A stretch of 64,000 nucleotides of DNA, from positions 3,826 to 67,825 of the forward strand of contig SVTR01000004.1 of NCBI GenBank assembly GCA_015063685.1. Direction: 5' to 3'. The translations under genes were made by a program, and so were the position numbers. The DNA is from Oscillospiraceae bacterium (GTDB lineage Bacteria > Bacillota > Clostridia > Oscillospirales > CAG-272). Below are positions 4,310 through 54,403 of this stretch, piece by piece. How positions within the stretch are numbered: position 1 is the stretch's first letter; each line of letters begins with the position of its first letter. The notes below the pieces were generated by a model that saw only the letters and a program-made list of their open reading frames with translations, ran no database searches and had not been told where the DNA came from.

Positions 4310-4482
4310 AATTTACTCCTTTCGTGAGGGTGGTTTTCAATCGTTTCGGCGGATGGGGCTTTTGCGGGACGCTGTATGGGAATTTGCCTTCAGCCGACCA
4401 ACGATTGTTTCCATCCTCTGCCACCTATGACGAACCGAAATGCCAAAATCTTACAGACTTTTCAAAAAATGACGAAGTTTTT

Positions 4483-6493: not shown

Positions 6494-6557
6494 AGTTTTT
6501 TCAAGCAAGGCAAAACCTTGCATCCTTTCAAAGGATATAGATCAGTTTGAGGGGGCG

Positions 6558-6639
6558 GCGGGCGACCGCAGGTCGCCCCTACGATGTGCATGGGGTGTTT
6601 GGGGGAGATTTTGGGGTAGGGGCGATCTGCGATCGCCCG
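6558..6639. repeat. Pair of REP-like hairpins (GGGCGAnC...GnTCGCCC plus CTAC/GTAG), tail to tail
   Basis: GCGGGCGACCGCAGGTCGCCCCTAC (6558-6582) and GTAGGGGCGATCTGCGATCGCCCG (6616-6639). The same family occurs at 16.7, 33.8, 49.5 and 51.7 kb. Confidence 0.7.
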
Positions 6640-6642
6640 TTG

Positions 6643-11741: not shown

Positions 11742-12623
11742 ATGGAGAAAGCTTTGAGAGGTAACTACAGCAGAACAGACCTTGCCTGTGAGAGCCGAGG
11801 ACCTGCCGATACCTGCGAGGAGACGGTGGTTTATCCCGTGCCCGGCGAAGAAGGGATCAACGTGCAGCGCTGCCTGGATGCTGACGGAGCACGTTACACA
11901 ACCTTTTTCTGCGGGCGGATGACCCTTATGGGGGAGGCCATGATCTCGGCCTTTGGAAAGCTTTTGGGCAATGAGATGGTCAAGATGGCCGAGGGGATGA
12001 TCGGCGGCCCTCTCGGGGGGCGTACCCGGGTGCTGGTGGCAGGGCTGGGCAATCCCGATATGACCGCGGACGCCATCGGCCCGGGGACGGTACGGCGCCT
12101 GACCGCCACCCGTCACCTGAAGATCTACGATGAGGGTATGTACCAAGCCTTAGGCTGTTGTGAGCTGGCTGCCATGTCTCCCGGGGTTTTGGGTCAAACG
12201 GGGATCGAGTCGGGGGAGCTGGTACGGGGGGCGGTGACCCACGTAAAGCCCCACTTGCTGGTGGCGGTGGATGCCTTGGCGGCGCGGAGCTGTGACCGTC
12301 TGGCCGCCACCGTGCAGCTATCTGACCGAGGCATATCTCCGGGGGCCGGGGTGGGAAATTTCCGTCTGCCCATGGATCACAAAACCATGGGATGTCCCGT
12401 TCTCGGGGTGGGTGTGCCCACGGTGGTGGACTCCGCTACCCTGATATATGACGCACTGATCCAAGGGGGCATGAAAGCGCCCTTTCCTGAAGGGCTGACG
12501 GCGGTTTTGGAGAACGGGCGAAGCTTTGTGGTGTCCCCGAAGGATAGCGACTGCATTACCGAGATCACCTGCCGCCTGCTGGCCAAAGCCATTGACCATG
12601 CCTTCGGGGTGGGGGAATTGTAG
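11742..12623 (+). CDS. gpr: Germination protease GPR (spore endopeptidase)
   Basis: RTDLACE, GLGNPDMTADAIGP, VAVDALAA and LSDRGISPGAGVGN motifs. Lies adjacent to spoIIP, as in many Clostridia. Confidence 0.9.
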   Translation: MEKALRGNYSRTDLACESRGPADTCEETVVYPVPGEEGINVQRCLDADGARYTTFFCGRMTLMGEAMISAFGKLLGNEMVKMAEGMIGGPLGGRTRVLVAGLGNPDMTADAIGPGTVRRLTATRHLKIYDEGMYQALGCCELAAMSPGVLGQTGIESGELVRGAVTHVKPHLLVAVDALAARSCDRLAATVQLSDRGISPGAGVGNFRLPMDHKTMGCPVLGVGVPTVVDSATLIYDALIQGGMKAPFPEGLTAVLENGRSFVVSPKDSDCITEITCRLLAKAIDHAFGVGEL

Positions 12624-12783
12624 GGCATCTCTAAAAACTCATCGCACAACGTTATGGCGGTGCTTTTTTTGGCATACGTCACAAAATTCTTTTGTGTAGG
12701 GTCAACTATGCGTGCAGATTTTGGTTTAGTCTGACGAAAAAATCCCTCGCATCTTGCCGCACGCTGAGTATGCAGAGATGCCC
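12623..12783 (+). mobile_element. MITE-like 160-bp element (family B), copy 1
   Basis: Imperfect terminal inverted repeats GGGCATCTCTAAAAACTCATCGCAC and GCACGCTGAGTATGCAGAGATGCCC. TGTA is duplicated on both flanks (12619-12622 and 12784-12787). The element starts on the last base of the gpr stop codon. Confidence 0.7.
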
Positions 12784-12861
12784 TGTAGCATGAAACGGGC
12801 GGGACGGGCATATGCTTTGATAAAAGGGCATCTTTGAGCCAAGAAAAAGGAGCGTGTTCCC

Positions 12862-14262: not shown

Positions 14263-14293
14263 TGCGGTTGCAGAGGGGGGCAGATAAATTGTT

Positions 14294-14452
14294 GGGCATC
14301 TCTAAATACTCAGCGTGCGGCGAGATGCGAGGGATTCTTTCGTCAGACTAAAAAAATCTGCGCGCATAGTCGTCCCTATGCGAAAGAATTTTGTGACGTA
14401 TGACGGAAAAAGCACCGTCATATCGTCGTGCGATGAGTTTTTAGAGATGCCC
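14294..14452 (-). mobile_element. MITE-like 160-bp element (family B), copy 2, inverted, with no target duplication
   Basis: Same termini as copies 1 and 3 but in reverse orientation. The flanks are TGTT on the left and CATA on the right, so no TSD. It abuts the accessory cassette. Confidence 0.7.
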
Positions 14453-14458
14453 CATATT

Positions 14459-14863
14459 TTATAGTATCCAATGCCATATTTCCAATACAATGATCATGAT
14501 ATTTATGAAAACAAACATTACGGACGAATATCCGTGTTTTCTCCAAATTTTGAGGCAACAATAAAAGCCAAACAAATAGTAGATCTCAAAAAATATGGCA
14601 AAATATTTTAAGTTGGTATGGGCGATCCATAAAGCGATCAGTTGGAGCACCGACAGGTATCCGATTCTTCCGAGGCTTTTGATGGGGGACGTGCCGATAT
14701 ACGACGGCGTATCGTCCGTCACCGTTTGCCGATAATCCTTCCAAAGACTTACTGACAATCTTTTCGCTAAGCGTTCGACGCTACTGCCAAAGGAACTGCC
14801 GTGATGGGGGATGGATGTGTTTCCGTTAGAAAAATCATGATGTAATGGATCGTTGGTCATCAT
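14459..14863 (-). CDS. Small membrane protein (134 aa), third gene of the MutS-like cassette
   Basis: About 60 soluble aa followed by three predicted TM helices. It shares the motif W-(R/K)-x-(K/R)-(H/F)-GYS with the 100-aa neighbour. It starts 12 nt after the neighbour's stop, and the local sequence is AT-richer. Confidence 0.6.
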   Translation of the reverse strand: MMTNDPLHHDFSNGNTSIPHHGSSFGSSVERLAKRLSVSLWKDYRQTVTDDTPSYIGTSPIKSLGRIGYLSVLQLIALWIAHTNLKYFAIFFEIYYLFGFYCCLKIWRKHGYSSVMFVFINIMIIVLEIWHWIL

Positions 14864-16849: not shown

Positions 16850-19444
16850 TTATTCTTCCTTCTTTTTCTCCATGTCCATCATACCGAGCTGATCGCCCAG
16901 AATGACCAGCTTGCCCTCGTCATCCTTCACGTAGTAGTAGCTGGTGCCGCCGTGGACGTTGGGCTGTTTCTCATTGAGGTACTTGTAGTGCCGCTCCATG
17001 CCGTCCTCTATGGGCATATACCCCTCGCCCGTGCCCTCATAGGACACCAGATCGTAGATGCGAATATCCTCGTAGGAGGTGACATAGGTGATGATGCGTA
17101 CAAGACCGATACCGGGGGCGAAGAAGTAGTCCTTATCAGTGTTCTGATAGGTGATGCCGGGACTCTCGTTCTGGCTGGTACGGGCGCGGATGCGGAGACA
17201 GTTTTCAAAGGTGCCGAGGGTGGTGGTCACCGTCTCTCCGCTGTATACGCGGCCGTAGCCGATAAATTCCTTGCCCTGATCCCAGCGTGCGGGGCGGTGG
17301 AACTGAAATTCCTCGTCACGATCTGCATACTCCAGCCACGCGGGATCCCACAAAGCACCCAAGCCGTTTTGCAGGATGTCGTAGATGAAGTTGATGAGGG
17401 TGGCAAAGCAACCGTTGCGGGTGTTCTTCCACTCAAATTCATAGGTGCGATCGCCGCTGGAGATCGTGAACTTTTCCCCAACTTGGGTAACGGGACAGTA
17501 GGTCAAGAAATTCCACACGCCTTCCTGTTTCGCGTTGGGATTTGCATCTGTATCACTTTGGAAAATGCGGTTCATGACGTTGCGGGATACCTCCGCCACC
17601 TTCTTCTCCCAAGGAGTCTGCGCCAAGGCCACGGCGCGGTCATGGTAGGCAGACACGTCCAACGCCACGTGGTCGCTATAGTAATTGTTACGGGCGTACA
17701 GGAGGTTGTCTCGCCATGAGTTCTCGTCGAAGGGCGTACCGAGAACGTAGTAGCGGTAGGAGAGATAGGCCTTGTTGTCCACCGTAGCCGTGACGGTGGT
17801 ACGGAAGGTGTGCTCATATTCCAGCTCCTCGGAGGTGTAGCTCCAGAAGTTGCCCTCGCAGAGGGGGATCCACCCGTGACCGCCGCAAACCTCGTACTCG
17901 CGCAGGGTGATCTTGCCGAACACCTCACCGTCTTGCTCCTTCCATCCGAAGGCCACCAGGCCGATATTGGGCTTATACCACGCCACGAAAACGGGGGCGG
18001 GGTATCTATCCCGGATGGGATTATAGGTGTGCATCTCTACACAGCCGTGGAAATCTCCGCAGGCAGTGGACACCGTGGCGTCGGTGGACACACAGGTGAG
18101 GGTGATCTTGCCCTCACTGTCGGTCACGCTGTCACCGACCTTCATGGTCTCGTCCAGAATCAGACCGTCCGCACGGGAGGATATCCAGAACGCGGAACCT
18201 GCCCACTTAACGTATGACGGAACATCCATGTAGCGCCGATCAAAGCCCGGCTGTTGACTAAAATACAGCTTGTTTCCGCGAATGATCAACTCCTCGGCGG
18301 TACATTCAAGCAGAAATTTGCTTCTGTCGGACAGCAGCTCTCCCACGCCGTCCATGCCCTCCAGGGTGGACCTGGTGAGTGCGATATACAGGGGATTCTC
18401 CGCGCCTGTCTCCAGCGCCAAGGCAAACTCCTTGCGGGCGTTGTCATAATCTTTGGCCTGAAAATAATCGTAGCCCAGCCAGTAGTGGTGGTAGGCCACC
18501 TCCCCGGGGATGTCGTACTTCAAAAGCTCGGGGATGATGGTGTTGTAAACGTAGTCCACCTTCTCCTTGCCCGAATATTTGTCCTTGCCAAAGCCGATGC
18601 ACAGGGCCAGCACCTCTTTGTTATTGCCCTTGATGGCCGCTTCCTTGAGCTTGGCCCGCATCTCGTCGGTCTTGCCGTCGGACAGATACCAGTAGCCCAG
18701 CTTGAGTACGTCGGCCATGGCGTAAAATTTCTTTTCGGAGTCGGGGAGGCTTTCTACCTGGGACAGCACGTCCTTGTAGTCCTCCTCAAACCCCACCTTG
18801 CTGTTCTTCAGCCGCCACTCCTTGAATTCCTCTACACGGCGCATGACGGCCTCTACCAAAGTTTCATGCTTGTTGTTCTTATCCACGTAACCTAATTCCT
18901 TTCTGATCTGGTCTCGCCCCGCGGACAAGCGGCTCTTGACCGTGCCCTCGGCGAGGCTCATTTTCGTTGCGATGTCGCTCACCGAAAGCCCCTCAAAGTA
19001 ATGAAGACGGATGACCGTACCGATCTTTTCTGACAGCTTTTTCACGCAGTCGCGGAGCAGCTCGGTTTCCAGCTTGTCATCATAGTAGCCCGTGACGTCC
19101 TCGGCCTTCTCCGCCAGATAGTTCTCTACCTCGTCGAAGGGGATGTAGTCCTTGTATCGCTTGGCCAGATTGATGGCGCGGTACTTGGCGATACGGCACA
19201 CCCAATGGCCGAACTTGGCGGCATCCTTCAAGGTGTCCAGGCGTTGCCAGGCGCAGAGAAAGGCATCCTGCACCGCGTCCTCGGCGGTGTGGAGATTTCT
19301 CGTTACGGTTTTGGCCATGAGCAGGGCGGCCTTGCGGTGACGGATCACCAATTCCTCAAAGGCGGCCTCGTCCCGCATAAGGGTCAAGGCGACCAGGGTC
19401 TCATCGGTTTGCTCACGGTAGCTGATGGCATGGTTTTGGTTCAT
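16850..19444 (-). CDS. ECF-like sigma-70 factor fused to a ~670-aa C-terminal domain (TPR-like helical part plus a beta-rich part)
   Basis: Start at MNQNH (ATG 19444, RBS AAGAGGAAAAAG) inside listed ORF 16850..19549. Region 2 AEDAVQDAFLCAWQ and region 4 LSVSDIATKMSLAEGTVKSRLSAGRDQIRKEL are followed by a long extension with no obvious TM segment. Confidence 0.8.
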   Translation of the reverse strand: MNQNHAISYREQTDETLVALTLMRDEAAFEELVIRHRKAALLMAKTVTRNLHTAEDAVQDAFLCAWQRLDTLKDAAKFGHWVCRIAKYRAINLAKRYKDYIPFDEVENYLAEKAEDVTGYYDDKLETELLRDCVKKLSEKIGTVIRLHYFEGLSVSDIATKMSLAEGTVKSRLSAGRDQIRKELGYVDKNNKHETLVEAVMRRVEEFKEWRLKNSKVGFEEDYKDVLSQVESLPDSEKKFYAMADVLKLGYWYLSDGKTDEMRAKLKEAAIKGNNKEVLALCIGFGKDKYSGKEKVDYVYNTIIPELLKYDIPGEVAYHHYWLGYDYFQAKDYDNARKEFALALETGAENPLYIALTRSTLEGMDGVGELLSDRSKFLLECTAEELIIRGNKLYFSQQPGFDRRYMDVPSYVKWAGSAFWISSRADGLILDETMKVGDSVTDSEGKITLTCVSTDATVSTACGDFHGCVEMHTYNPIRDRYPAPVFVAWYKPNIGLVAFGWKEQDGEVFGKITLREYEVCGGHGWIPLCEGNFWSYTSEELEYEHTFRTTVTATVDNKAYLSYRYYVLGTPFDENSWRDNLLYARNNYYSDHVALDVSAYHDRAVALAQTPWEKKVAEVSRNVMNRIFQSDTDANPNAKQEGVWNFLTYCPVTQVGEKFTISSGDRTYEFEWKNTRNGCFATLINFIYDILQNGLGALWDPAWLEYADRDEEFQFHRPARWDQGKEFIGYGRVYSGETVTTTLGTFENCLRIRARTSQNESPGITYQNTDKDYFFAPGIGLVRIITYVTSYEDIRIYDLVSYEGTGEGYMPIEDGMERHYKYLNEKQPNVHGGTSYYYVKDDEGKLVILGDQLGMMDMEKKKEE

Positions 19445-19620
19445 CTTTTTCCTCTTTTCGTGAATGTTCGGTGTTGCTTGTTTTCCTATAGAATGATCGA
19501 CCCATGCTGCGCTGGGGGCGCGGTATGCACACTCCCGTGACACCGCCATCGCAGGTGGCTCTGTCTATATGACAACCGCGCAAGGGAAAAGGTTCGGTTT
19601 GTGGAAAAATTTTGTAAAGG

Positions 19621-20430
19621 GGATTGTTTGTCGGCCAAATCGGGGATGCTTAACTTATGCGAGCCGCATACCCGATGGGCGGTTGGTCAGCTAAATTGTT
19701 GTTTATATTCTTCTCAACTTTTCTCTCCACGGCGAGAGAAAAGTTGCAAAAGAAGCGCCGCTTAGTGCAGAACCTACGGTTCTCCCTAAGAACCCAACTC
19801 CCTCGTGACGCACGCAGACCACAGAGGTGGTCTGCTATTGCGTGTTTCTTGTCAGCCACCGGCGGTGGCTCGCCCCCACGGCGGAGCGCCTCGGGGCTCA
19901 TCGAAAAGCCGATTGACATATTTCTGTTGGTCGAACAAGGGAATGTTCAGGGTCAAGTGGCGAAGCTACAGTTCTGATGGCGAATGGACAAATGTTGTTG
20001 TTTTTCAATCAAACGATTATCTCTCGCCGTGAGAACTATGGATTCGATACTATTTTTCAATATTGAATTTCTTCAAACTCACTAACGCTTTCTGAACGGC
20101 ACGGTATGAGCCTCAAGGCGCTCCGCCGCAGAGGCGGGTTATCGGCGTTGGCTGACACGTGACACGCGATAGCCGCTCCACTCCCCATTGGGGAGCGGCG
20201 TGCGTCACGAGGGAGTTGGGTTCTTAGGGAGAACCGTAGGTTCTGCACTAAGCGGCGTTCTTTTGGAACTTTTCTGCCGCCGTGGGCAGAAAAGTGGAAA
20301 GGATGCTAAACAACAATTTACCTGCTTAACTGCCCATCGCGGGATGCGGTACGCACAGGATGCACTACCCCGAGCGATGGCCGCGGCACGGCCGCTAAGC
20401 AACAATTTATCTGCCTAATCACCCACTATG
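19621..20430. repeat. Nested palindromic non-coding repeat locus A (partial 88-nt-type units flanking long-armed element copy 1)
   Basis: Forward AAATTGTTGTTT at 19693 and a degenerate GGATTGTTTG at 19621. Reverse AAACAACAATTT at 20308 and AAGCAACAATTT at 20397. No credible ORF. Confidence 0.8.
19693..20319 (+). mobile_element. Long-armed palindromic element, copy 1 (L arm ~215 bp, core ~190 bp, R arm ~220 bp)
   Basis: A perfect 60-nt inverted repeat, 19756-19815 against 20198-20257. The core (about 19906-20096) reads the same as in the copy at 53.3 kb. Mobility is inferred only from the copy number. Confidence 0.6.
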
Positions 20431-20448
20431 GGGGACGACCATACAATG

Positions 20449-20478
20449 AAAGCCCGCAGGGTCACACCTTCGGGCTTT
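20449..20478 (-). terminator. Hairpin after the cytidylate-kinase-like gene
   Basis: AAAGCCCG-loop-CGGGCTTT, 15 nt after the stop. The T-tract is weak. Confidence 0.45.
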
Positions 20479-20492
20479 GATTTGATATTCAG

Positions 20493-21107
20493 TTAGTTCT
20501 TCTGCGCCGTATCCTGGATGGCCTTCATGATCAGCTCGGTGCAAAGCTCCTCGCCCAAAAGTCCGCTGTCCAGCGCCATGTGGTAGTTGGTGCAGACGCC
20601 CCACTCACGGTCGGTGTGGAAGCGATAGTAATTGCGACGGCGGTTGTCCTTGTCGCGGAGCCGCTGCTCGGGGGTTTTTTCAGTTTGACCGTAGTTCTTC
20701 AGGATATGGGCCACACGATGCTCCATGTCCGCGTGGATGAACACGTGAAGACAGTCGGCGCGGTCGCGGAGGATGAAATCGGCGCAACGACCCACGATGA
20801 CACAGGGCTCCTTGTCGGCCAGATCCTCAATGACGTGGGTCTGTGCCTCGTATAGCCGCTGATAAACAGAGGGATAACCCAGACTGCCCGCGGTGCTCAT
20901 GGCGAGCTGGAAGAGAAAGCTGTTGGAGTGAGAGGCGTATTCCTCATGCTCCTTGATGAAGTCTTCGGAAAGGCCGCTGGACTTGGCCACCTCGGTGATG
21001 AGCTTGTTGTCATAAAAGGCGATGCCCAATCGGTCGGCAACCAGCTTGGCGATGGTGTGTCCGCCGCTGGCAAACTCACGGCTGATGGTAATGATGCGTT
21101 TTTTCAT
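20493..21107 (-). CDS. Cytidylate kinase-like family protein (P-loop NTPase-like)
   Basis: MKKRIITISREFASGGHTIAKLVADRLG is typical of the cytidylate-kinase-like family. Start at ATG 21107 after GGAG. Confidence 0.8.
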   Translation of the reverse strand: MKKRIITISREFASGGHTIAKLVADRLGIAFYDNKLITEVAKSSGLSEDFIKEHEEYASHSNSFLFQLAMSTAGSLGYPSVYQRLYEAQTHVIEDLADKEPCVIVGRCADFILRDRADCLHVFIHADMEHRVAHILKNYGQTEKTPEQRLRDKDNRRRNYYRFHTDREWGVCTNYHMALDSGLLGEELCTELIMKAIQDTAQKN

Positions 21108-21341: not shown

Positions 21342-21501
21342 GGGCATCTCTAAAAACTCATCGCACGCCGATATGCGGTGCTTTTTCCGTCATACGTCGC
21401 AAAATTCTTTCGCATAGGGCCAACTATGCGTGCAGATTTTTGTTTAGTCTGACGAAAAAATCCCTCGCATCTCGCCGCACGCTGAGTATTTAGAGATGCC
21501 C
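21342..21501 (+). mobile_element. MITE-like 160-bp element (family B), copy 3
   Basis: Termini GGGCATCTCTAAAAACTCATCGCAC and GCACGCTGAGTATTTAGAGATGCCC. AAAA occurs on both flanks (21338-21341 and 21502-21505). Confidence 0.7.
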
Positions 21502-45408: not shown

Positions 45409-46203
45409 ATGAAAAAGAAGCTTTTAGTTGTGTTGTTGGCCTCTATCCTGTTGGTTTCCGCTGTTGCTTGCGGCAATGAGGGCGCAGGAGATGAAACGTC
45501 TGCCGGTGCTGACACCAGCATCCAGGTGCCCGGTACCGATGCGGCCGTTCCCGGTACGGAAGCCGTAACCAATGGTAACGGCACTGCTGAAACAAGTAAG
45601 ACGACCGAGACCCAGAAGCCTTCGAACCCCGACTATAATGAAGAGACCCCCACCTTCAAGGATGTGAATAAGACCCTGTACGTTTGGTACGGCAAGGCAA
45701 CCATCCGCACTTCTACCAATACGGATGACGATGAAAATGCAATTGGCTGGCCTGTGGAGGGCACCCTTCTGACCGCCACCGGCGAGAGCGAGAAGTGGTA
45801 TCGCATCCAGTATAAGGAGCAGACCTGCTACATTTCCAAGACTGTCGTTGGTGACAACGCCAAGATCGCAGAGATGACCGAGGTCAACGAGGAGATCGAG
45901 ATCTCCGGTGACGTGAACGTCCGTACTTATCCCTCTACCGATGGCGGCGACCTCACCAAGAGAGGCCTTCTGAAGAAGGGCGCTAAGGTGACCCGCGTGG
46001 CTAAGGGCGAGGAGTGGAGCTGCATCCTGTTTACCGTGGAGTCCGAGACCGAGACCACGGCCGACGGCAAGCCCAAGACCGAGGAAAAGCGCTACTTCAT
46101 CTTCAACGAGTGCATTAAGAATGACGCCGAAACTACTGCTGCTGAGACGACCGTTGCGACTGAAGCCGCAACCGAAGCCGCAACCGAGGGCGCTACTGCA
46201 TAA
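45409..46203 (+). CDS. Lipoprotein with two bacterial SH3-like domains
   Basis: Lipobox LLVSAVACG. Two SH3b-like segments (ATIRTSTN...WYRIQY and VNVRTYPS...WSCILF), with T/E/A-rich linkers. Confidence 0.7.
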   Translation: MKKKLLVVLLASILLVSAVACGNEGAGDETSAGADTSIQVPGTDAAVPGTEAVTNGNGTAETSKTTETQKPSNPDYNEETPTFKDVNKTLYVWYGKATIRTSTNTDDDENAIGWPVEGTLLTATGESEKWYRIQYKEQTCYISKTVVGDNAKIAEMTEVNEEIEISGDVNVRTYPSTDGGDLTKRGLLKKGAKVTRVAKGEEWSCILFTVESETETTADGKPKTEEKRYFIFNECIKNDAETTAAETTVATEAATEAATEGATA

Positions 46204-46217
46204 TAGCTGAATGATCC

Positions 46218-46250
46218 AGAGACTCCTTCTTGCGAAGGAGTCTCTTTTCT
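46218..46250 (+). terminator. Rho-independent terminator
   Basis: AGAGACTCCTTC-TTGC-GAAGGAGTCTCT followed by TTTCTG. Confidence 0.7.
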
Positions 46251-46296
46251 GTGGATTGAACAAAGGCAGAAACCGTAAACTTTTCCTGAAAAGGGC

Positions 46297-46325
46297 TTGC
46301 ATTTTTTAGGATGTTGTGGTATAAT
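46297..46325 (+). promoter_or_regulatory. Sigma-A type promoter for tRNA-Arg
   Basis: TTGCAT, 17 nt, TATAAT, with an upstream TGG. It lies 16 nt upstream of the tRNA 5' end. Confidence 0.6.
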
Positions 46326-46341
46326 ACTGTAGTATTCATAT

Positions 46342-46418
46342 CTACCCGTGGCACAGCTGGATAGCGCGTCAGACTCCGACTCTGAAGGCCAGCGGTTCGA
46401 ATCCGCTCGGGTAGGCCA
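46342..46418 (+). tRNA. tRNA-Arg (anticodon CCG), with encoded CCA
   Basis: Manual cloverleaf. Acceptor stem CTACCCG/CGGGTAG. Anticodon stem TCAGA/TCTGA with loop CTCCGAC. T arm AGCGG-TTCGAAT-CCGCT. Discriminator G plus CCA. The D stem has one A-C mismatch. Confidence 0.85.
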
Positions 46419-46421
46419 AAA

Positions 46422-46452
46422 AGAAAAGTCGCGCAAGCGGCTTTTTCTTTTT
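46422..46452 (+). terminator. Rho-independent terminator after the tRNA
   Basis: AGAAAAGTCGC-GCAA-GCGGCTTTTTCT followed by a T-run. Confidence 0.65.
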
Positions 46453-46590
46453 GTACTCTTCACTATTCTCTTTTCACTCTTCACTTTTCTCTAAATCTCC
46501 GCGCGACTTTTCCAGAGAAGAGATAAGAGAGAAGAGAGAAAAGAAAAGGTAGCTTTTCTCCTGCGCCTTTGGCGCTTTGGTCGAAAAGCA

Positions 46591-46619
46591 TTGATTTTTA
46601 TTATAAAATGTGATATAAT
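46591..46619 (+). promoter_or_regulatory. Sigma-A type promoter of the AT-rich islet
   Basis: TTGATT, 17 nt, TATAAT, with an extended TGA. Confidence 0.55.
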
Positions 46620-46642
46620 GATTATGAAGTGAGGCGAAGACA

Positions 46643-46987
46643 ATGAACAGCCCATTACTTGAAAAATCAATGGATTTTGCAACGCAGATTGTACTCTTCT
46701 ATGAGGAGTTTTTAAAAAGCAAAAAGGATACGACGATTGCAAAGCAATTATTGCGCTCCGCTACAAGTATCGGCGCGAATATAAACGAAGCTATTTACGG
46801 AAACAGCAAAGCAGACTTTATATCGAAATTACATATTTCGCTCAAAGAAACGGGTGAAAGTATTTATTGGATTACCTTGTTGAAGCGCACAAATTTAGTT
46901 ATTTACGATTTTGATAAGTTGCTTTCGTTAGCCGAAGAAATCAAACGTATGCTGATTTCTTCGCTTAATACTGCCAAATCTACTTAA
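46643..46987 (+). CDS. Four-helix-bundle protein (23S rRNA intervening-sequence protein family)
   Basis: The QLLRSATSIGANINEA and LKETGESIYWITLL pattern is typical of this family. 114 aa, encoded by very AT-rich DNA. Confidence 0.8.
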   Translation: MNSPLLEKSMDFATQIVLFYEEFLKSKKDTTIAKQLLRSATSIGANINEAIYGNSKADFISKLHISLKETGESIYWITLLKRTNLVIYDFDKLLSLAEEIKRMLISSLNTAKST

Positions 46988-46995
46988 GAAAATAA

Positions 46996-47430
46996 ATGAA
47001 AATACTATATACTGCATTCAAAGGAAAAAATAATACTTCTTATCAAGTAGCAAGCCGCTTAAATGGAACTGTTTTATTTCTAACCAATTCTTTTCAAGGG
47101 TTGGAAAAAGATATAGCTACCGTTGTAAATGACTATGATGTTGTTTATATGTTGGGGTGTAATAAGTCATTAAACAACAAAATCAAAATTGAAACTTGTG
47201 CCGAATATAACGGAGAACGGATTTTTACAGAATTTGACATATCGGAGCTAAAAAAAAGAATTGACAATAAACTGTCTTATTCTATTTCATATTCTCCTAC
47301 CAAATATTTGTGTAATGCCGCATTTTATCACATGTTAAAGAAAAATAAAAACACCGTTTTTATACATATTCCTTCGATATCGGGAATGAATAATTGTTTG
47401 ATAGAAGATATAATTGAGCTTTTAAATTAA
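46996..47430 (+). CDS. Minimal pyroglutamyl-peptidase I (C15)-like protein, 144 aa
   Basis: MKILYTAFKG resembles the VLVTGFEPFGG start. IETCAEY resembles the catalytic Glu region, KYLCNAAFYHML resembles the GTFVCN catalytic Cys, and VFIHIPS resembles the GFIHVP catalytic His. It is about 70 aa shorter than canonical Pcp and has no clear RBS. Confidence 0.5.
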   Translation: MKILYTAFKGKNNTSYQVASRLNGTVLFLTNSFQGLEKDIATVVNDYDVVYMLGCNKSLNNKIKIETCAEYNGERIFTEFDISELKKRIDNKLSYSISYSPTKYLCNAAFYHMLKKNKNTVFIHIPSISGMNNCLIEDIIELLN

Positions 47431-47512
47431 GCATTTGAATTTATTTAAAAAATCGCAAAGGTTCAAATCCATCGGTTAAAAAGGTAAAATATCTTTTTTG
47501 TACGCGCTTCAC

Positions 47513-47549
47513 AAAAAGAACACCACCCCTCGTGGGTGGTGTTCTTTTT
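47513..47549. terminator. Bidirectional rho-independent terminator closing the islet and the convergent sigma-fusion gene
   Basis: AAAAAGAACACCACCC-loop-GGGTGGTGTTCTTTTT. Confidence 0.7.
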
Positions 47550-47593
47550 GACTATCCTGGCGGTAAGCAGAAGCCTGCGAAAGCCTTCCCCCT

Positions 47594-49186
47594 TCAGCGC
47601 TTTACCCCGAATATCGCCAGATTGGTCGGCTCGTCGGGAACTGTCAACAGTCCCTTGGCAACCATGGCCTCCAGCACGAAGGCCATCACATCCAAACGGT
47701 GATGAATTTTGGCGACATCAGCAACTCCGCACAGGGTGGTGTCCAAATCGTGAGGCACGTACTGCCGTAGCAGAGTCTCAGCTTTATCCGAAATGGAAAT
47801 CATAAAATCGACGATTTTGTCCCGCATAGGTATCATCATTTCCTCCAGTTGCCAAATGCTATCTTCGGTGAATACGGGAAACAGAGGATGCAGTACGCCG
47901 TCGCGACTCTCGATTATATGATCCCTGATCAGCATGGCGATTACCTCGGGATCTTCTTTGGAGGGGCGCCCCAGGATGGCATCACACATGATTTGTCCTT
48001 TTTCTCGGAAGCGGAAATAATCGTATTTTTGGCAGGTGATCGCCACGCGATAATTCACGGCAGAAAACCAAGCGGTGCCCTCTTGATTGCCCGTGCGCCC
48101 TGTAATGCCGCCGAAATGGTGGTTTTCGTAGTTGTTATCGTAACCGAACAAAAATCCGTTCCCTCCAAGGGGAAGCGCAGGCGGATCCGACACGGGGGAT
48201 TTAAAACAACTCATTTCGTATCCCCGATACAGCAGGATATTGAGTATCATCCAAAGAAGGCGGTTGTCATCATCATCTTTACCCGAGAAATCCAGGCGTC
48301 TGACATCCGAGATCCGCGTCTTCACGGCTTCATGCAGCTCGACAGCCAGCGCATCATATTCCGAAATGGTACGCTTGACAAACTCTTTTTCATAAGCGTC
48401 CGTCACGATGATCAGATTCGTGCGATAGCGGTTGCCATTCTTCGTCATCAGCCCCGCCGCTACCAGCGTGTCCAGTTCATCCTCTAAATAGACCGCCGGT
48501 ACGCCTGTTTCTATGGACAGCTCCCCCTCGGTCATAGGTGCATCGTAGGCCGCCAGCATCAAGGCGCCCGGCAGGCGGCGGTCAAATACATGGCCATAAT
48601 GATTGTTATCACCCCAAAAATCCAAGCGGAATACGCCGGGATCATAGCTTTTTTCTCCGTATTTTCTTGTCATATTCATCCCTTCCTTCAATTGCTTTCT
48701 GGCTTGCGCCAGGTGGTATTTCACCATGTCCACGCTGATACCCAGCTCCCGCGCAATGGTAGCGCAGCTTTTCTGCCCCACATAATAGGCTACCGTCACC
48801 TCCCGTCTGTGTCGGGACAGGGTGGCCAGCTCACGCCGTAGAAGATGAAGCTCTTCGTCGGCAGCCTCCTGCTCGGCGTAGGCCGTGGCAGGGGAGGGAA
48901 CATAAACGCCCAATGCCAGCTCACTTCCTTCATCGGGGAGAGCCGATATCCGCTCACGGAGCTTTTGACGGCGCAGATACATATGAAAAGTATTATCGGC
49001 TACTCGCCACACAAAGCCCCAGAAGGCGGCTTCCTCCCGCAGATGGTTTGCCGAGGACAAAACCTGATAGACGATCTCACCGGCCAGATCGTCAGCCTGA
49101 GTTCGATCGTATAGCTTGCCGTAGGCATAGCCATAAATGGCCTTGATATTTTCCGCAAGCAACGCGGCTGCGCGTTTTCTGTCCAT
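47594..49186 (-). CDS. Sigma-70 family factor fused to a ~350-aa C-terminal domain (contains an extra winged-helix-like segment)
   Basis: Start at MDRKR (ATG 49186) 7 nt after AAGGAG. Region 2 FWGFVWRVADNTFHMYLRR and region 4 SCATIARELGISVDMVKYHLAQARKQLKE are followed by MTEGELSIETGVPAVYLEDELDTLVAAGLM and a further ~300 aa. Confidence 0.8.
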   Translation of the reverse strand: MDRKRAAALLAENIKAIYGYAYGKLYDRTQADDLAGEIVYQVLSSANHLREEAAFWGFVWRVADNTFHMYLRRQKLRERISALPDEGSELALGVYVPSPATAYAEQEAADEELHLLRRELATLSRHRREVTVAYYVGQKSCATIARELGISVDMVKYHLAQARKQLKEGMNMTRKYGEKSYDPGVFRLDFWGDNNHYGHVFDRRLPGALMLAAYDAPMTEGELSIETGVPAVYLEDELDTLVAAGLMTKNGNRYRTNLIIVTDAYEKEFVKRTISEYDALAVELHEAVKTRISDVRRLDFSGKDDDDNRLLWMILNILLYRGYEMSCFKSPVSDPPALPLGGNGFLFGYDNNYENHHFGGITGRTGNQEGTAWFSAVNYRVAITCQKYDYFRFREKGQIMCDAILGRPSKEDPEVIAMLIRDHIIESRDGVLHPLFPVFTEDSIWQLEEMMIPMRDKIVDFMISISDKAETLLRQYVPHDLDTTLCGVADVAKIHHRLDVMAFVLEAMVAKGLLTVPDEPTNLAIFGVKR

Positions 49187-49274
49187 GGTGTACTCCTTGT
49201 TTGAATGCATTCGGTTATATAGTGTCGGAGGGAGGGTGGTGGTGAGGGGTGGGAGAAAATAAATTTTGAAAGGT

Positions 49275-49800
49275 AAATTGTTGTTTGCCGGCCGTGCCGG
49301 CTGCCAATGCCGGGGATGTGCATCCCGTGCAAGCTACATCACACGATGGGCGATACAACGGTAAATTGTTGTTTACCACCTGCGGTGGGGGCGGCCGTGC
49401 CGCGGCCAATGCTCGGGGGAGTTCATCCCGTGCCATAGACATCACACGATGGGTAGTTGGTCAGATAAATTGTTGTTTGCGTGGGCTTACTATGAACCCG
49501 TAGGGGCGAACTGCGTTCGCCCGCCGTTCCCCAAAAGCCTTTGCTTATCAATATACTTTTTATTACGGGCGAACACAGTTCGCCCCTACGACCATGTTGC
49601 TCAGAAAACCGTAAACAACAATTTACCGGTTTATTACCCCTCGCGGTATGCGGCTCGCATGGGTTGCACATCCCCGTTTTTGGCCGCGGGCACTGCCCGC
49701 AAACAACAATTTACCGCTTATATCCCATCGTGGGATGTAGATCAACATGGGATACACTACCCCGAGCCAAAGCCCCACCGCAGGTGGTAAGCAACAATTT
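49275..49800. repeat. Mirrored array of ~88-nt AAATTGTTGTTT-units around a central REP pair (locus C)
   Basis: Forward units start at 49275, 49363 and 49467. Reverse-orientation 12-mers end at 49624, 49712 and 49800. The central REP pair is at 49500-49589. Confidence 0.8.
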
Positions 49801-49852
49801 ATCTTCCGCTGTATAAAACAATAAAGGAAAGCCCGCAGGCTTTCCTTGTATG

Positions 49853-50506
49853 TCACCGATAATCAAACCGTTCCCCCGTCTCCATGAGAAAGCACCGGGC
49901 GGCGGTGATCTCGGACAGTCTTGCCTCCATGTCGGCATAGTGAATCTTTTTCACCGCCAAAGTCAGGGTCACCCGATCCGAAAACTCACTGTCGTCGGTC
50001 ACAACACCGTACTTGGGTAGCTCCTGAAGAATAAGCTGATAATCGGAGTAGGTGGTTTCCAGCATAAACTCGGTGTATTTTTCGTAGGTGATGATCTTGG
50101 CTGCCTCCAAGGCGATGGTGGCAGCGTGAGAATAGGCGCGGACAAGACCTCCCACCCCCAAAAGAATGCCGCCAAAATAACGGGTGGTCACCACCACGGC
50201 GTCAAAGACCCCTTTTTTGCGGATAGCCTCCAAGGTGGGAAGCCCTGACGAGCCTTGGGGCTCGCCGTCGTCGGAATACCTTGCCGCCAGCTCGTTGGAG
50301 GTTCCCTTGCTGATGCGGTAGGCCCAGACGTTATGGGTGGCGTCGGCGTACTGCTTTTGCAGGCTCTTGATGAAGGCCATGGCATCCTCTTCACTCTCTA
50401 CGTGGGCGGCATGACCGATAAATTCGGAGCGCTTTTCTTCAAATCTGTCCTCGCCCTCGCCCGCCAATGTGGTATACAGAACGGGAGCGACGCTGTTTTC
50501 ACTCAT
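49853..50506 (-). CDS. yigZ: YigZ/IMPACT family protein
   Basis: KRSEFIGHAAHV, THNVWAYRI and YSDDGEPQGSSGLP. Start at MSENS (ATG 50506) after AAGGAG, overlapping the NUDIX gene by 8 nt. Confidence 0.85.
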   Translation of the reverse strand: MSENSVAPVLYTTLAGEGEDRFEEKRSEFIGHAAHVESEEDAMAFIKSLQKQYADATHNVWAYRISKGTSNELAARYSDDGEPQGSSGLPTLEAIRKKGVFDAVVVTTRYFGGILLGVGGLVRAYSHAATIALEAAKIITYEKYTEFMLETTYSDYQLILQELPKYGVVTDDSEFSDRVTLTLAVKKIHYADMEARLSEITAARCFLMETGERFDYR

Positions 50507-51092
50507 GATTCTTCTCCTTGGGATTATTTTCAAGCGTGGAAACTTCCTCTTCCGTAGGTTGCAGCCAGGCGTCATCTCCGATGATATCGGTCAGCTTGGC
50601 CTTGACAAAGCCGTAGCGCATGGCGCAGGGCGGGGGGATCAGACCCTTGTGGATCATAGTCTCAAATTCACAGAAGGTGACCCACTGGAAATCCACGGTC
50701 TCACCCTCTTGCAGGGTGATGGTCGCATCCTCATCCGCCCTGTCGAGGTGGCAGAGGTAGCAATCCATAAAGGCTGACGGTTCCCGGAGGGTGCCGAGAT
50801 AGATCAGCTCCTCCTTAGGGACATTGATACCCGTTTCCTCCGACAACTCACGCCACGCGGAAGTCAGGCTGTCCTCGCCGCTGAGACCCGAGCCGCCGGT
50901 GAATTCCCAGTAACCGGGATACATCCCTTTGGTAGGGGCGCGGAGGGTCAGAAGCAGGCGGTTGGCCGCATCCACGGTAAACACCGAGACAACGGTATGA
51001 TAGGTGTGGGGCGGCATAGGGTACTGTCGCCCACGGGGATGGGTAATACCCAGGGGGGTGCGGTCTTTATCAAGTAAATCCCAGAGTTCCAT
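50499..51092 (-). CDS. NUDIX hydrolase
   Basis: Nudix box GGSGLSGEDSLTSAWRELSEETGI. Confidence 0.85.
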   Translation of the reverse strand: MELWDLLDKDRTPLGITHPRGRQYPMPPHTYHTVVSVFTVDAANRLLLTLRAPTKGMYPGYWEFTGGSGLSGEDSLTSAWRELSEETGINVPKEELIYLGTLREPSAFMDCYLCHLDRADEDATITLQEGETVDFQWVTFCEFETMIHKGLIPPPCAMRYGFVKAKLTDIIGDDAWLQPTEEEVSTLENNPKEKNHE

Positions 51093-51101
51093 AATGGCTC
51101 C

Positions 51102-51674
51102 TTATATCATGACAATGGATTGTTCGTCGGTCAGCGCTACGACCTTTCGCCCCGCCGTCGTCAGCTCGTCTAGATGGCTTTCACGGGCTGGGGTGAAGTG
51201 GCAGAGCAAGGTCATGTCTGTCAGACCCAAGCCCCGAAGGTCAGTCATGCCCGCGGGCGGGGCATCGTAGCGGGTGACGTGAGTGAGGTCGCCGCAGACT
51301 ATATGCGCTCCTGCGCTTCCTCCGATATATGTCACTCCCGATTGGATATAACGAATGATCTCACGGTCAAAACCACTTTTGCGGATGTGGTCAAGGGTGG
51401 AGAAGGTATTGCCACCACTGATATAGAGGACATCGATGTCCAGGCCAACTGAGGGGGCGGGATCGGCGTAGTCCAGCACGCGGACAAGGGCGGGATCAAA
51501 GCCCAGCTCCGCCATACGGGCGTGATACTTGCCGCCTGTCACCTTGTCGGAGGTGGCTTTTTCGTTGGGGATGAACAGGAGATGGCACTCCGAAAGGGGC
51601 TTCGGGAGGTTGTCCAGAATGACCTGGCGGGAGCGCTCGTTGCGGAAGTCGCAGGAAGATAGAATGAGTTTCAT
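51102..51674 (-). CDS. Peptidase S51 (dipeptidase E-like) family protein
   Basis: ISGGNTFSTL and YIGGSAGAHIV motifs; 190 aa. Confidence 0.8.
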   Translation of the reverse strand: MKLILSSCDFRNERSRQVILDNLPKPLSECHLLFIPNEKATSDKVTGGKYHARMAELGFDPALVRVLDYADPAPSVGLDIDVLYISGGNTFSTLDHIRKSGFDREIIRYIQSGVTYIGGSAGAHIVCGDLTHVTRYDAPPAGMTDLRGLGLTDMTLLCHFTPARESHLDELTTAGRKVVALTDEQSIVMI

Positions 51675-51724
51675 AGCGGCTCCTTGGAATGTTAAGGTGG
51701 AAATTCATTTTGACTAATTCAGTC

Positions 51725-51816
51725 GTAGGGGCGAACTGCGTTCGCCCGCAAGTTAAGACAGATCAAATTTTGATAACGGTGATTGGGATAAGCGGGCGAA
51801 CACAGTTCGCCCCTAC
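51725..51816. repeat. REP pair (head to head), 92 bp
   Basis: GTAGGGGCGAACTGCGTTCGCCCG (51725-51748) and CGGGCGAACACAGTTCGCCCCTAC (51793-51816). These are the same termini and spacing as the pair at 49500-49589, with a different interior. Confidence 0.7.
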
Positions 51817-51839
51817 GGCATCGTAGAAATCGCCACAAA

Positions 51840-53210
51840 CTACCAAGTATCCTCTTCCTTCACGGTCTTGGCATTGGGATCATACTTCTTCATGAGCCCA
51901 TACACTCGATCGTCTACGGTGGCTACCACGGTGACGGCATCGTAGCCGTAGTCTACCGATTCCACGGCGGCTTGCTCGGAGTAGAGGCGGGACAAAGCCC
52001 CTTGCTCGGCGTTGGGAATCACGAAGGTTACGGTGCGCTTTCCGCGGCGGATGATATCCTGAATGGCCTCGGCTAACTCGTCGCATCCCTGACCTGTCAA
52101 GGCTGAGATACACACGGCACGTTTTTGACCGTCGCGGCCGCTGACCTTGTTGGCGGTCACATCCATGAGGCTGACGGCGTCCCCAAAGGCACGGTCACAC
52201 TTGTTAAACACGTACAGGGTAGGCTTACCGCCCGCGCCCAGCTCGTCCAAAAGCTGCTCGGTGACCTCCAGTTGGGAAGCGCACTCAGGGTCGGAAGCAT
52301 CCAGCAGGAGCATGATGATGTCGGCGTAAACCGCTTCCTCCAGGGTGGAGCGGAAGGCATTGACCAGATGGTGGGGGAGCTTTTTGATAAAGCCAACGGT
52401 GTCGGTCAAGAGGACGGACTCACCGCTTGGCAGGGTGAACTTGCGGGTGGTGGGATCTAGGGTGGCGAAGAGCTTGTCCTCCGCCAAAATGCCCGCACCC
52501 GTCAGGGTATTGAGCAGGGTGGATTTGCCTGCGTTGGTGTAGCCCACGATGGCGATCTTGGGCACGCCGCTTCTGTCGCGGGAAGCACGCATGGTGCGGC
52601 GGTTCTTCTCCACCACCTCAAGCTCAGCCTTCAGGGCGTCGATGCGGCGTTTCATGTGCCGTCTGTCGCTTTCCAGCTTGGACTCACCGGGGCCTCGGGT
52701 GCCGATACCACCGCCCAAACGGGACATTTCGATACCGTGACCCGTAAGCCGTGGAGCTGTATATTGCAGCTGTGCCAGCTCCACCTGCAGCTTACCCTCG
52801 GAGGTCACGGCGTGGAGGGCGAATATATCCAGAATCAAAATGGAGCGGTCAATGACGCGGAGGTTGTCCCCTCCGATGTCATCCTCCAGATTGCGGATCT
52901 GCACGGGAGAAAGATCGCAGTCGAAGACCACAAGGCCTATATCATTGTTGTGGCAGAGATCAGCCAACTCTTTGACCTTGCCCGAGCCAATGAGGGTGCG
53001 GGGATCGGGGGTAGTCTTTTGGATCATGCGGGCGAAGGTCTCGCCCCCTGCGGTGTCCAAGAGACGTTCCAACTCGTCCAGGGATTTTTCGGCCTCCTCA
53101 ATACTGTCAGCGGCGGTGCGCTCCTCGCGGGCAACCACGCCCACAAGGACGGCCTTGATGGGGGATTCGTTTTCACCCTTGGATATAATGGTGTTTTTAT
53201 TTTCAGACAT
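51840..53210 (-). CDS. hflX: GTPase HflX
   Basis: GYTNAGKSTLLN, DTVGF and NKCD. The HflX N-terminal domain is present. Confidence 0.9.
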   Translation of the reverse strand: MSENKNTIISKGENESPIKAVLVGVVAREERTAADSIEEAEKSLDELERLLDTAGGETFARMIQKTTPDPRTLIGSGKVKELADLCHNNDIGLVVFDCDLSPVQIRNLEDDIGGDNLRVIDRSILILDIFALHAVTSEGKLQVELAQLQYTAPRLTGHGIEMSRLGGGIGTRGPGESKLESDRRHMKRRIDALKAELEVVEKNRRTMRASRDRSGVPKIAIVGYTNAGKSTLLNTLTGAGILAEDKLFATLDPTTRKFTLPSGESVLLTDTVGFIKKLPHHLVNAFRSTLEEAVYADIIMLLLDASDPECASQLEVTEQLLDELGAGGKPTLYVFNKCDRAFGDAVSLMDVTANKVSGRDGQKRAVCISALTGQGCDELAEAIQDIIRRGKRTVTFVIPNAEQGALSRLYSEQAAVESVDYGYDAVTVVATVDDRVYGLMKKYDPNAKTVKEEDTW

Positions 53211-53245
53211 ATAAATTCCTCTCTTATAGATATGGGCTGTAACAT

Positions 53246-54066
53246 AAATTGTTGTTTACCACCTGCGGTGGGGCTTTGGCTCGGGGTAGTGCATCCTGTG
53301 CTAGATACATCACGCGATGGATGGTTAGGCAGATAAATTGTTGTTTATATTCTTCTCAACTTTTCTCTCCACGGCGAGAGAAAAGTTGCAAAAGAAGCGC
53401 CGCTTAGTGCAGAACCTACGGTTCTCCCTAAGAACCCAACTCCCTCGTGACGCTAGCCGTTTGGCAAAGGCCAAACGGACAACAGCGTGTTTTTTGTCAG
53501 CCACCGGCGATGGCCCGCCCCCACGGCGGAGCGCCTCGGGGCTCATCGAAAAGCCGATTGACATATTTCTGTTGGTCGAACAAGGGAATGTTCAGGGTCA
53601 AGTGGCGAAGCTACAGTTCTGATGGCGAATGGACAAATGTTGTTGTTTTTCAATCAAACGATTATCTCTCGCCGTGAGAACTATGGATTCGATACTATTT
53701 TTCAATATTGAATTTCTTCAAACTCACTAACGCTTTCTGAACGGCACGGTATGAGCCTCAAGGCGCTCCGCCGCAGGGGCGGGCTATCGGCGTTGGCTGA
53801 CACAAAACACGCGATAGCCGCTCCACTCCCTTTCGGGGAGCGGCGTGCGTCACGAGGGAGTTGGGTTCTTAGGGAGAACCGTAGGTTCTGCACTAAGCGG
53901 CGTTCTTTTGAGCCGCTTGCGGCGTCTTTTCATGCCGCCGTGGGCAGAAAAGTGGAAAGAATGCTAAACAACAATTTACCTGCCCAACTACCCATCGCGT
54001 GACGCATTAGGTAGAGGATGCACTACCCCGAGCGATGGCCGCGGCACGGCCGCCAAACAACAATTT
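53246..54066. repeat. Nested palindromic non-coding repeat locus B (one 88-nt unit on each side of long-armed element copy 2)
   Basis: Forward AAATTGTTGTTT at 53246 and 53335. Reverse AAACAACAATTT at 53966-53977 and 54055-54066. Confidence 0.8.
53335..53977 (+). mobile_element. Long-armed palindromic element, copy 2
   Basis: Same L arm, core and R arm order and orientation as copy 1. The core reads identical by eye, and the copies differ mainly in small hairpin cassettes inside the arms. Confidence 0.6.
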
Positions 54067-54091
54067 ATCGTCTCACCAATTCCACAATTTA

Positions 54092-54135
54092 ATAAAAGCA
54101 AAAGGACAGGACGCATACAGCGCACCTGTCCTTTT
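54092..54135 (-). terminator. Rho-independent terminator after rpmE
   Basis: AAAAGGACAGG-loop-CCTGTCCTTTT, followed by GCTTTTATT on the minus strand. Confidence 0.65.
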
Positions 54136-54193
54136 ATCGGTTGACATATTGCCCCCGTGGAAGCATAGGCATCCCACAGGCTCCAAGGAGAGA

Positions 54194-54403
54194 TTACTGC
54201 TTGATACCGGCCAGTCTCTTCTTGAACTTATCCACACGACCGCCAACGTCGACAAACTTCTGCTTGCCGGTGTAGAAGGGGTGGCACTTGGAGCAAATTT
54301 CAACACGCATCTCGCTACCCTTGGTAGAACGAGAAACGACAGTCTCGCCGCAGGCGCACTTGATGGTGCACTCAACGTACTCAGGATGGATACCGTTCTT
54401 CAT
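54194..54403 (-). CDS. rpmE: 50S ribosomal protein L31 (zinc-binding type A)
   Basis: [25 protein letters not shown]. Start taken at the third codon of listed ORF 54194..54409 because of the spacing from GAGG. Confidence 0.9.

Follow-up and report, generated by a model that had tools for sequence, protein, structure and literature searches.

A 64-kb stretch of contig SVTR01000004.1 from an Oscillospiraceae bacterium (hereafter the window), which belongs to the core chromosome of a spore former within the Clostridia and is ~55% GC, carries a family of non-coding intergenic repeats built from hairpin modules, all of which have one 13-nt motif at their outer boundary, where it reads TAAATTGTTGTTT at left-hand ends and AAACAACAATTTA at right-hand ends. 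We consider it probable that this is a non-autonomous mosaic family resembling miniature transposable elements with inverted repeats (MITEs) and bacterial interspersed mosaic elements (BIMEs), and that the 627-bp palindrome at 19693-20319, described in an initial annotation of the sequence, is a foldback-type member of it. The family is probably mobile as DNA, and its long palindromes are neither a new RNA gene nor a new switch. We refer below to the long palindromes as B elements, to a module of ~88 nt as the A unit and to a core of ~160 nt that contains a dimer of repetitive extragenic palindromes (REPs) as the C core.

The initial annotation had reported two palindromes of ~630 bp with the same architecture (19693-20319 and 53335-53977), and both were borne out as imperfect palindromes. 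In copy 1, positions 19756-19815 and 20198-20257 form the perfect 60-nt inverted repeat that had been noted, 60 nt being its maximal perfect extent, within arms (~19693-19901 and 20106-20319) that are 81% complementary over ~215 nt. The cores, 34 kb apart, had been read as identical by eye and are so: the 204-nt core of copy 1 (19902-20105) is repeated exactly at 53547 in copy 2, inside the longest exact stretch common to both copies (261 nt, from 19871 and 53516). Both cores also contain the 12-bp palindrome TTCAATATTGAA (at 20056 and 53701) and the degenerate third copy of the arm start (19992-20003 and 53637-53648, 2 mismatches) that the annotation had described. The two copies are 91% identical overall and their differences are not scattered: a left-arm hairpin is replaced wholesale (GCAGACC..GGTCTGC in copy 1 versus GCCGTTTGGC..GCCAAACGG in copy 2), a small extra hairpin (GCCGC-TTG-CGGC) interrupts the right arm's first hairpin, and a few point changes make up the rest.

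Similarly, the view of the arms as chains of hairpins was upheld, with double (compensatory) changes in 12 of the 59 predicted intra-arm pairs across genomes. The whole B element folds computationally as the rod that had been predicted, on the plus strand (minimum free energy -391.6 kcal/mol, z-score -26) as well as on the minus strand (-368.9 kcal/mol, z-score -29). A rod in read-through RNA, or the extrusion of a cruciform, would be physically possible. The mirror open reading frames (ORFs) of the element, earlier taken to be non-coding, have no Pfam match even at E = 0.1.

The ends of the element had been drawn too tightly: the structure reaches further out, with A units on each side. Nor did the picture of a two-copy element hold, because the window contains a third cluster (49274-49801) and dozens of copies are found in metagenome-assembled genomes (MAGs) of Oscillospirales. 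The 12-mer AAATTGTTGTTT occurs 19 times in the window at up to 2 mismatches, where 3.8 occurrences are expected, and the 13 motif copies with at most 1 mismatch are confined to the three intergenic clusters. The clusters, each of which lies between two minus-strand genes, past the upstream terminator hairpin and shortly before the next gene, are made up as follows (no strand is assigned to the features themselves; E values are from nhmmer with an A-unit profile).

Cluster 1, between an upstream cytidylate-kinase-like gene and a downstream gene for an 899-aa sigma-70 fusion:
19604-19692: degenerate (old) A unit to the left of B copy 1; match at 19636-19690, E = 7e-4.
19692-19901: left arm of B copy 1, opening with motif TAAATTGTTGTTT at 19692-19704; hairpins CAACTTTTCTCTC/GAGAGAAAAGTTG, GAACC/GGTTC, a variable GC hairpin and GCCACC/GGTGGC.
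19902-20105: core of B copy 1, 204 nt, with the degenerate motif at 19992-20003, palindrome TTCAATATTGAA at 20056-20067 and an internal inverted pair CTACAGTTCTGA / TGAGAACTATGG.
20106-20320: right arm of B copy 1, closing with AAACAACAATTTA at 20308-20320.
20321-20409: A unit to the right of copy 1, with body, GC triloop hairpin and motif; E = 1e-22.
20410-20440: putative truncated remnant of a further A unit (TCTGCCTAATCACCC...), judged from sequence repeats.
Cluster 2, between an upstream IMPACT-family gene and a downstream gene for a 538-aa sigma-70 fusion:
49274-49361 and 49362-49465: left A units, E = 2.5e-21 and 1.3e-20; the second has two GC hairpins in tandem.
49466-49625: C-type core, consisting of motif, inverted GTAG-tagged REP hairpins (49499-49523 and 49566-49590) and motif.
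49626-49713 and 49714-49801: right A units, E = 3.4e-19 and 3e-18.
Cluster 3, between the upstream gene for ribosomal protein L31 and the downstream gene for HflX:
53245-53333: A unit to the left of B copy 2, E = 3.3e-21; its outer motif is 34 nt from the HflX start codon.
53334-53978: B copy 2, with left arm 53334-53546, core 53547-53750 and right arm 53751-53978.
53979-54067: A unit to the right of copy 2, E = 2.5e-21; 91% identical to the right unit of copy 1.
54068-54092: putative short decayed remnant, with a degenerate motif CCACAATTTAA at 54082-54092, adjoining the L31 terminator.

An A unit comprises a conserved body, a GC hairpin of 5-6 bp closed by a triloop, and the motif. We recovered 49 distinct A units with the profile, and all 49 have the motif both before and after them, while in 38 the motif is preceded, at a distance of 1-2 nt, by a perfectly paired GC stem 5 bp or longer, a feature that is built from nine different stem sequences and is reached in 9% of shuffled controls. 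A units are flanked on both sides by direct motif repeats; they have no terminal inverted repeat (TIR) of their own, always follow ...AATTTA, and have dissimilar hairpins at their two ends. At the ends of B, C and other cores the 13-nt motif forms TIRs. The C core is a GTAG-tagged REP dimer between two motifs, in which the GTAG/CTAC tag stands beside a GC-rich hairpin in an inverted dimer (49499-49590); we found no GTAG-tagged REP in B arms or A units. The feature that cores B, C and at least three further types (L022, L053/L079, L064/L076, L113; here and below, L numbers denote loci from other assemblies) have in common is the motif only. The motif-adjacent hairpins of A, B and C modules are altogether unlike one another and lie 1-20 nt from the motif. 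The clusters follow one grammar: in all 18 complete clusters, drawn from the window and the MAG loci, motif order is (+)n and then (-)m, with n and m each 1-3 and unequal in 10 of the 18. Tiny GC triloop hairpins (CCACC-GCA-GGTGG, GCGGC-ACG-GCCGC, GGCGGC-ACT-GCCGCC, GCCGC-TTG-CGGC) occur as swappable or insertable sub-modules in A units and B arms, sometimes tandemly doubled, as at 49425-49453, 53914-53925 and 19813-19834.

To follow the family beyond the window, one genome per species was scanned for two motifs 65-95 nt apart, a pattern that also gave many chance hits, and ~1 Mb of DNA was fetched, ~250 kb of it from family-carrying genomes. The search for further copies and for empty sites that the initial annotation had suggested was productive on both counts, with further copies in related MAGs and empty L31-HflX sites in congeners. 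At least eight uncultured Oscillospirales genomes carry the family, namely that of the window and at least seven other MAG species, with repeated matches in RGIG8736, RGIG8715, RGIG3848, Eubacteriales T1900044586, Oscillospiraceae SIG529 and SIG684, and Faecousia. In RGIG8736, RGIG8715, SIG684 and a species of the same genus as the window's, B arms show 77-89% identity and compensatory hairpin changes; the right arm of copy 1 matches RGIG8736 locus L038 with ~89% identity over 175 nt, and the copy-1 core is partly conserved at that same locus, which belongs to another genus. Homologous C cores were found at L026, L035, L075, L082, L093 and L117. The same modules occur in both orientations and beside unrelated genes, and the copy loci of the window species were recovered independently in several samples.

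Clusters occur once per 21 kb in the window and once per 1-8 kb in the fetched stretches, a density that is biased because the motif was the criterion for choosing those stretches. Beyond the window, no further copies were found on the source contig. MAG and metagenome contigs characteristically stop within clusters: MAG contigs typically begin with right-hand units and finish with left-hand units, and contigs from the window species itself are interrupted within B, the behavior of dispersed repeats. A scan of metagenome contigs with B-arm and A-unit patterns gave 0 matches in a collection evidently without these samples (JGI contigs do match), a scan of viral contigs with a tandem-motif pattern gave AT-rich chance matches only and no A-unit profile match, and blastn against plasmid and phage collections gave no match. 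In literature full text the motif string retrieved unrelated primers only, and we found no reports of MITEs or REPs in Oscillospiraceae or Ruminococcaceae. The family therefore appears to be undescribed, while its kind is well known; the earlier statement that the element belongs to no recognized class stands in that it has no Rfam, plasmid or phage match, and fails in that by architecture it is a MITE/BIME-like repeat.

Between closely related species the family turns over rapidly. Among the congeners compared, which share 84-92% HflX DNA identity, the content of the L31-HflX interval differs: it is empty (~120 nt) in L111, L112, L115, L118 and L120 (84-89% HflX DNA identity), none of which has an intact motif in 4-11 kb, L119 has a single degenerate motif copy with 2 mismatches, and the window, L113, L116 and L117 are filled with differing contents. 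At the IMPACT-sigma538 site the outer junction, AACAACAATTTA|C.TTT..AAA..TTTTCC..CCCCTCACC, is kept in four species, in which the interiors are wholly unlike: A-A-C-A-A; A-E-A, an E-type core with an A unit to either side; a C core alone; and a REP doublet of the REPIN type with other hairpins. Window positions 4327-4408 hold a short decayed palindromic relic at the site of a full cluster in RGIG8736 (L093, 4716-5118: C core, REP dimer and A unit). The most decayed pieces of the window clusters are the outermost ones (19604-19692, 20410-20440 and 54068-54092).

Synteny breakpoints between congeners coincide with clusters. Relative to congener L115, the L31-HflX-NUDIX-IMPACT segment (window 49800-54600) is inverted, with breakpoints in element-bearing intergenic regions. 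L113 and L114, whose HflX genes are 99% identical, differ by a rearrangement whose breakpoint is a second type of MITE inserted in the motif. In a contig of the window species from another sample (L108, 1-790, compared with 53200-53995), the left arm and core of copy 2 are joined to the right arm of copy 1 and its A unit, a join that could reflect gene conversion between copies, or else misassembly into a chimera across the 261 nt that the copies share; we rejected L108 as evidence of recombination because that stretch exceeds assembler k-mer sizes.

By which route might such clusters grow and shrink? We infer that new members would insert at the center of resident ones, the older halves being pushed outward and decaying, that arrays would shrink through deletion between directly repeated motif copies, and that gene conversion among the many copies would reshuffle modules; together these processes would yield clusters that read (+)n core (-)m and meet the flanking DNA at a fixed junction. 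Since deletion from motif to motif always leaves one flank motif, it would explain both the conserved junctions and the unequal sides, and gene conversion among copies would explain the hairpin swaps and the partly matched unit pairs, such as those in L113. We propose that the motif is recognized by an enzyme whose gene lies elsewhere in the genome. With regard to gene expression, the elements, which lie between the terminator of one gene and the ribosome-binding site of the next, probably do nothing sequence-specific for the host and would ride passively in read-through transcripts as a long hairpin; as DNA, they may offer homology for recombination and rearrangement.

Several observations weigh against a mobile family that grows by nesting. 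Pfam searches of ~45 window ORFs revealed no transposase, recombinase or autonomous element in the window, and the genes between clusters, in the window and in the MAG loci that were searched in the same way, are ordinary housekeeping or metabolic genes. A tblastn search with an IS200 TnpA as query found no Y1 transposase in the ~1 Mb of fetched DNA (~250 kb family-carrying), and a parent insertion sequence (IS) with the same TIRs was found neither in the window nor in the ~250 kb of family-carrying loci. Filled and empty pairs (L111/L115 against the window; L093 against 4327-4408) gave no clean target-site duplication, the flanks at L31-HflX and at 4327-4408 being too diverged or holding decayed relics for a clean alignment, and the sole candidate duplication, TA, is common to both flanks and is also part of the conserved motif. 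An uninterrupted A-A' palindrome, which central nesting needs, is absent from the ~250 kb, and in cluster 2 the units pair as X Y core X' Y', not in nested order. Additionally, the outermost unit differs between L113 and L117 despite a nearly identical flank, so that gene conversion or another insertion mode is needed. Lastly, B arms are as conserved across genera as a housekeeping gene, which could reflect selection instead of selfish spread.

The main alternative, which keeps to repeat DNA, is that the clusters are assembled like cassettes at the motif; we regard it as possible without favoring it. If single-ended A units integrated beside an existing motif and regenerated it, the motif and its adjacent hairpin being the substrate of an HUH/Y1 enzyme (RAYT- or TIRYT-like) or of a site-specific recombinase, then head-to-tail arrays would flank a palindromic core, and the B and C cores would be head-to-head module pairs. 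Such assembly is consistent with A units that are flanked by direct motif repeats and lack a TIR, with the absence of an intact A-A' palindrome, with the independent unit numbers of the two sides, with an outer flank junction that is invariant next to modules that differ even among close relatives, and with a subterminal hairpin, 1-2 nt away from the motif, that is conserved by means of compensatory stems; the same mosaics also hold GTAG REP dimers, which are proposed substrates of Y1 transposases (PMC3733652, PMC6006769). However, no HUH or recombinase gene was found among the window ORFs or, with the TnpA query, in the fetched DNA, and motif-adjacent hairpins that differ entirely among A, B and C at distances of 1-20 nt are unexpected for a Y1 enzyme that reads a hairpin. 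The left and right hairpins of A units are dissimilar, unlike IS200/IS605 ends, and the decay of the outermost units argues against addition at the outer junction.

An integron-like version, in which a dedicated enzyme (HUH/Y1 or a site-specific recombinase) recombines at the 13-nt motif and so assembles and reshuffles arrays of structured non-coding modules to either side of palindromic cores, strikes us as rather doubtful. If it were true, most intergenic regions of some gut Oscillospirales would hold an integron-like cassette system for hairpin DNA, with outer junctions fixed for long evolutionary periods. A true attC/integron identity was rejected: there is no inverse-core/core pair within a unit, A units having GNYYAAC at one end only and the same-strand order GTTRRRY...RYYYAAC running across the whole cluster, and no integron integrase was found in the window.

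The position of the clusters raises the question of whether they act as RNA. The three window clusters lie just upstream of minus-strand genes, and 12 of 68 outer ends are separated by only 18-37 nt from a start codon that has a Shine-Dalgarno sequence, which places those clusters inside mRNA unless an undetected promoter lies within the cluster. In RGIG8736 the ortholog of the 899-aa sigma gene (L008; 71% amino-acid identity) also has a cluster upstream. The window has two sigma-70/ECF-type proteins with long C-terminal extensions, both encoded on the minus strand (16850-19549, 899 aa; 47594-49210, 538 aa) and both directly downstream of a cluster. A functional structured RNA or 5'-untranslated-region device, in which the rod or hairpin chain controls the stability, processing or translation of the downstream gene (sigma-factor fusion or HflX), would be in keeping with these positions, including the element shared upstream of the orthologous sigma-fusion gene in another genus, and with the very stable folds, the intra-arm hairpins kept through compensatory changes and the high conservation of B arms across genera.

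We nonetheless think such a device improbable, and a dedicated RNA found no support. The arm-arm mismatches are mainly transversions, G-U pairs do not consistently favor either strand, and folding is weaker for the co-transcribed minus strand than for the plus strand, which together argue against selection on a long RNA duplex. Furthermore, the same modules stand in both orientations and beside unrelated genes, close relatives lack the element upstream of HflX, and interiors are replaced wholesale between species. Scans with Rfam 15 (gathering threshold for the whole window, E values up to 10 for 19500-20500) returned a tRNA as the sole gathering-score match in the 64 kb and nothing better than E = 1.1 in the narrower interval, in agreement with the earlier view that no known RNA family is involved. 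No terminator-like site was found inside the elements, the single match being the L31 terminator in the flank; we also rejected hairpin plus motif as a terminator since, on either strand, the A/T-rich run flanks the hairpin on the side opposite to that of a terminator.

It is very unlikely that the B element is an invertible DNA switch, in which recombination between the arms flips the core, or a cruciform-based regulator of transcription. Long inverted arms with a 60-nt perfect stretch would suit such a role, and the B element upstream of HflX in L113 is opposite to that of the window, but this difference is seen only between species (87% HflX DNA identity), where independent insertion explains it equally well, and the orientation of the core is the same in both window copies and in same-species contigs. 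An invertible promoter also finds no support: inversion of the core had been raised initially, but no promoter-like sites were found in or around B elements, core and arms included, and no recombinase in the 64 kb. A segmental duplication or assembly artefact, to which the 261-nt identical stretch and the chimeric appearance of L108 might point, is effectively refuted because the flanks differ (sigma fusion and cytidylate-kinase-like versus HflX and L31) and the same loci were recovered independently in several samples, and homologous elements are present in other genera; the simple duplication that the initial annotation had named as the outcome contrary to its reading is likewise ruled out by the differing flanking genes.

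The clusters are not the only repeats of this chromosome. A second, unrelated MITE (D-type; TIR GG(G/T)(A/C)A(C/T)CTCTAAAAACTC, ~160-215 bp) is present in the window at 21342-21501, 12623-12787 and 14296-14462, and in L003, L020, L035, L082, L114, L117 and L120. It has clean 4-bp target duplications (AAAA, TGTA, AACA three times, CATA, TATT and TGAA), and we rejected these D-type palindromes as members of the motif family despite their abutting CAACAATTTA in several loci, as they are a separate MITE with 4-bp duplications. Three copies interrupt the 13-nt motif at AAACAACA|ATTTA, a hint that ATTGTT-like targets are preferred, and the copy at 14296 abuts a solitary TAAATTGTTG (14286-14295). GTAG-tagged REP dimers without the 13-nt motif (REPIN-like, GTAGGGGCGAAC..GTTCGCCC) are found at 51722-51843 and 6546-6640, and orthologous dimers lie between the genes for HflX and an S51 peptidase in congeners L118 and L120.

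Window genes include those for tRNA synthetases, DnaG, RpoD, EF-G, sporulation proteins and several sigma factors. An AT-rich stretch at 46000-48000 (41% GC versus ~55%), beside tRNA-Arg(CCG) at 46342-46418, includes a small ORF whose product falls in the intervening-sequence protein family of 23S rRNA, and may be an islet.

What do these observations imply for the genomes concerned? The family is one of the principal causes of the breaks that occur every few kb in short-read assemblies of these Oscillospirales from gut and rumen, and its clusters mark the synteny breakpoints between congeners. For specialists, its interest lies in a very clear grammar, in one motif that is common to REP-containing and unrelated modules, and in outer junctions that are kept across species while interiors turn over fast. 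Given closed genomes and long-read data from populations, it could reveal how mosaics of this sort expand and contract and by which enzyme. By itself it reveals no new kind of system.

Several known systems resemble the family. Eukaryotic foldback elements have long inverted arms of modular sub-repeats, and the very small dispersed repeats of cyanobacteria are tiny palindromes that insert into one another; these belong to other kingdoms or lineages and are alike in architecture alone, with no sequence relationship. With IS200/IS605-derived PATEs, which have no TIRs, similar subterminal hairpins at both ends and insertion 3' of a short target, the comparison is mixed: A units lack TIRs and always follow ...AATTTA, but the hairpins at their ends are dissimilar, and B and C do carry TIRs. 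Clustered TIR repeat families (TIRtron/TIRYT) have been described whose copies form dimers and clusters and in which Y1-transposase genes are flanked by TIRs (PMC3733652). The family in the window has the same TIR-type, partly self-complementary repeats in dimers and clusters alongside REPs, but no Y1 gene is linked to it, and we take the comparison as a lead only.

There is also a likeness to MITEs, especially those of nested or foldback type, and to the Correia elements and mosaic intergenic regions of Neisseria: these too are non-coding and have TIRs and many copies that are present or absent between relatives, they lie inside operons as would-be RNA hairpins, and several interiors share one terminal repeat. 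The family departs from them in that no target-site duplication was demonstrated and no parent IS is known for it, in its unusually long arms (215 nt), which are themselves conserved hairpin chains, and in its single-ended A units that form arrays; the co-resident D-type MITE, with its clean 4-bp duplications, behaves quite differently. With the REPs, REPINs and BIMEs of E. coli and Pseudomonas the family shares high-copy intergenic palindromes in mosaic clusters, a location between same-direction genes and downstream of terminators, and module content that varies at orthologous sites. The C core is literally a GTAG-tagged REP dimer within a longer palindrome, an arrangement already described for GTAG-15 of Anabaena variabilis (PMC3733652). 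BIMEs alternate the orientation of their REPs, whereas the motif order here was (+)n(-)m in every complete cluster; the unifying element is a 13-nt A/T-rich terminal motif and not the GTAG tag, the B arms and A units are not GTAG-tagged REPs, and the host is a Firmicute in which no RAYT was identified. We regard the family as a compact equivalent, in a Firmicute, of the REP/BIME and Correia systems, with a grammar that is unusually clear.

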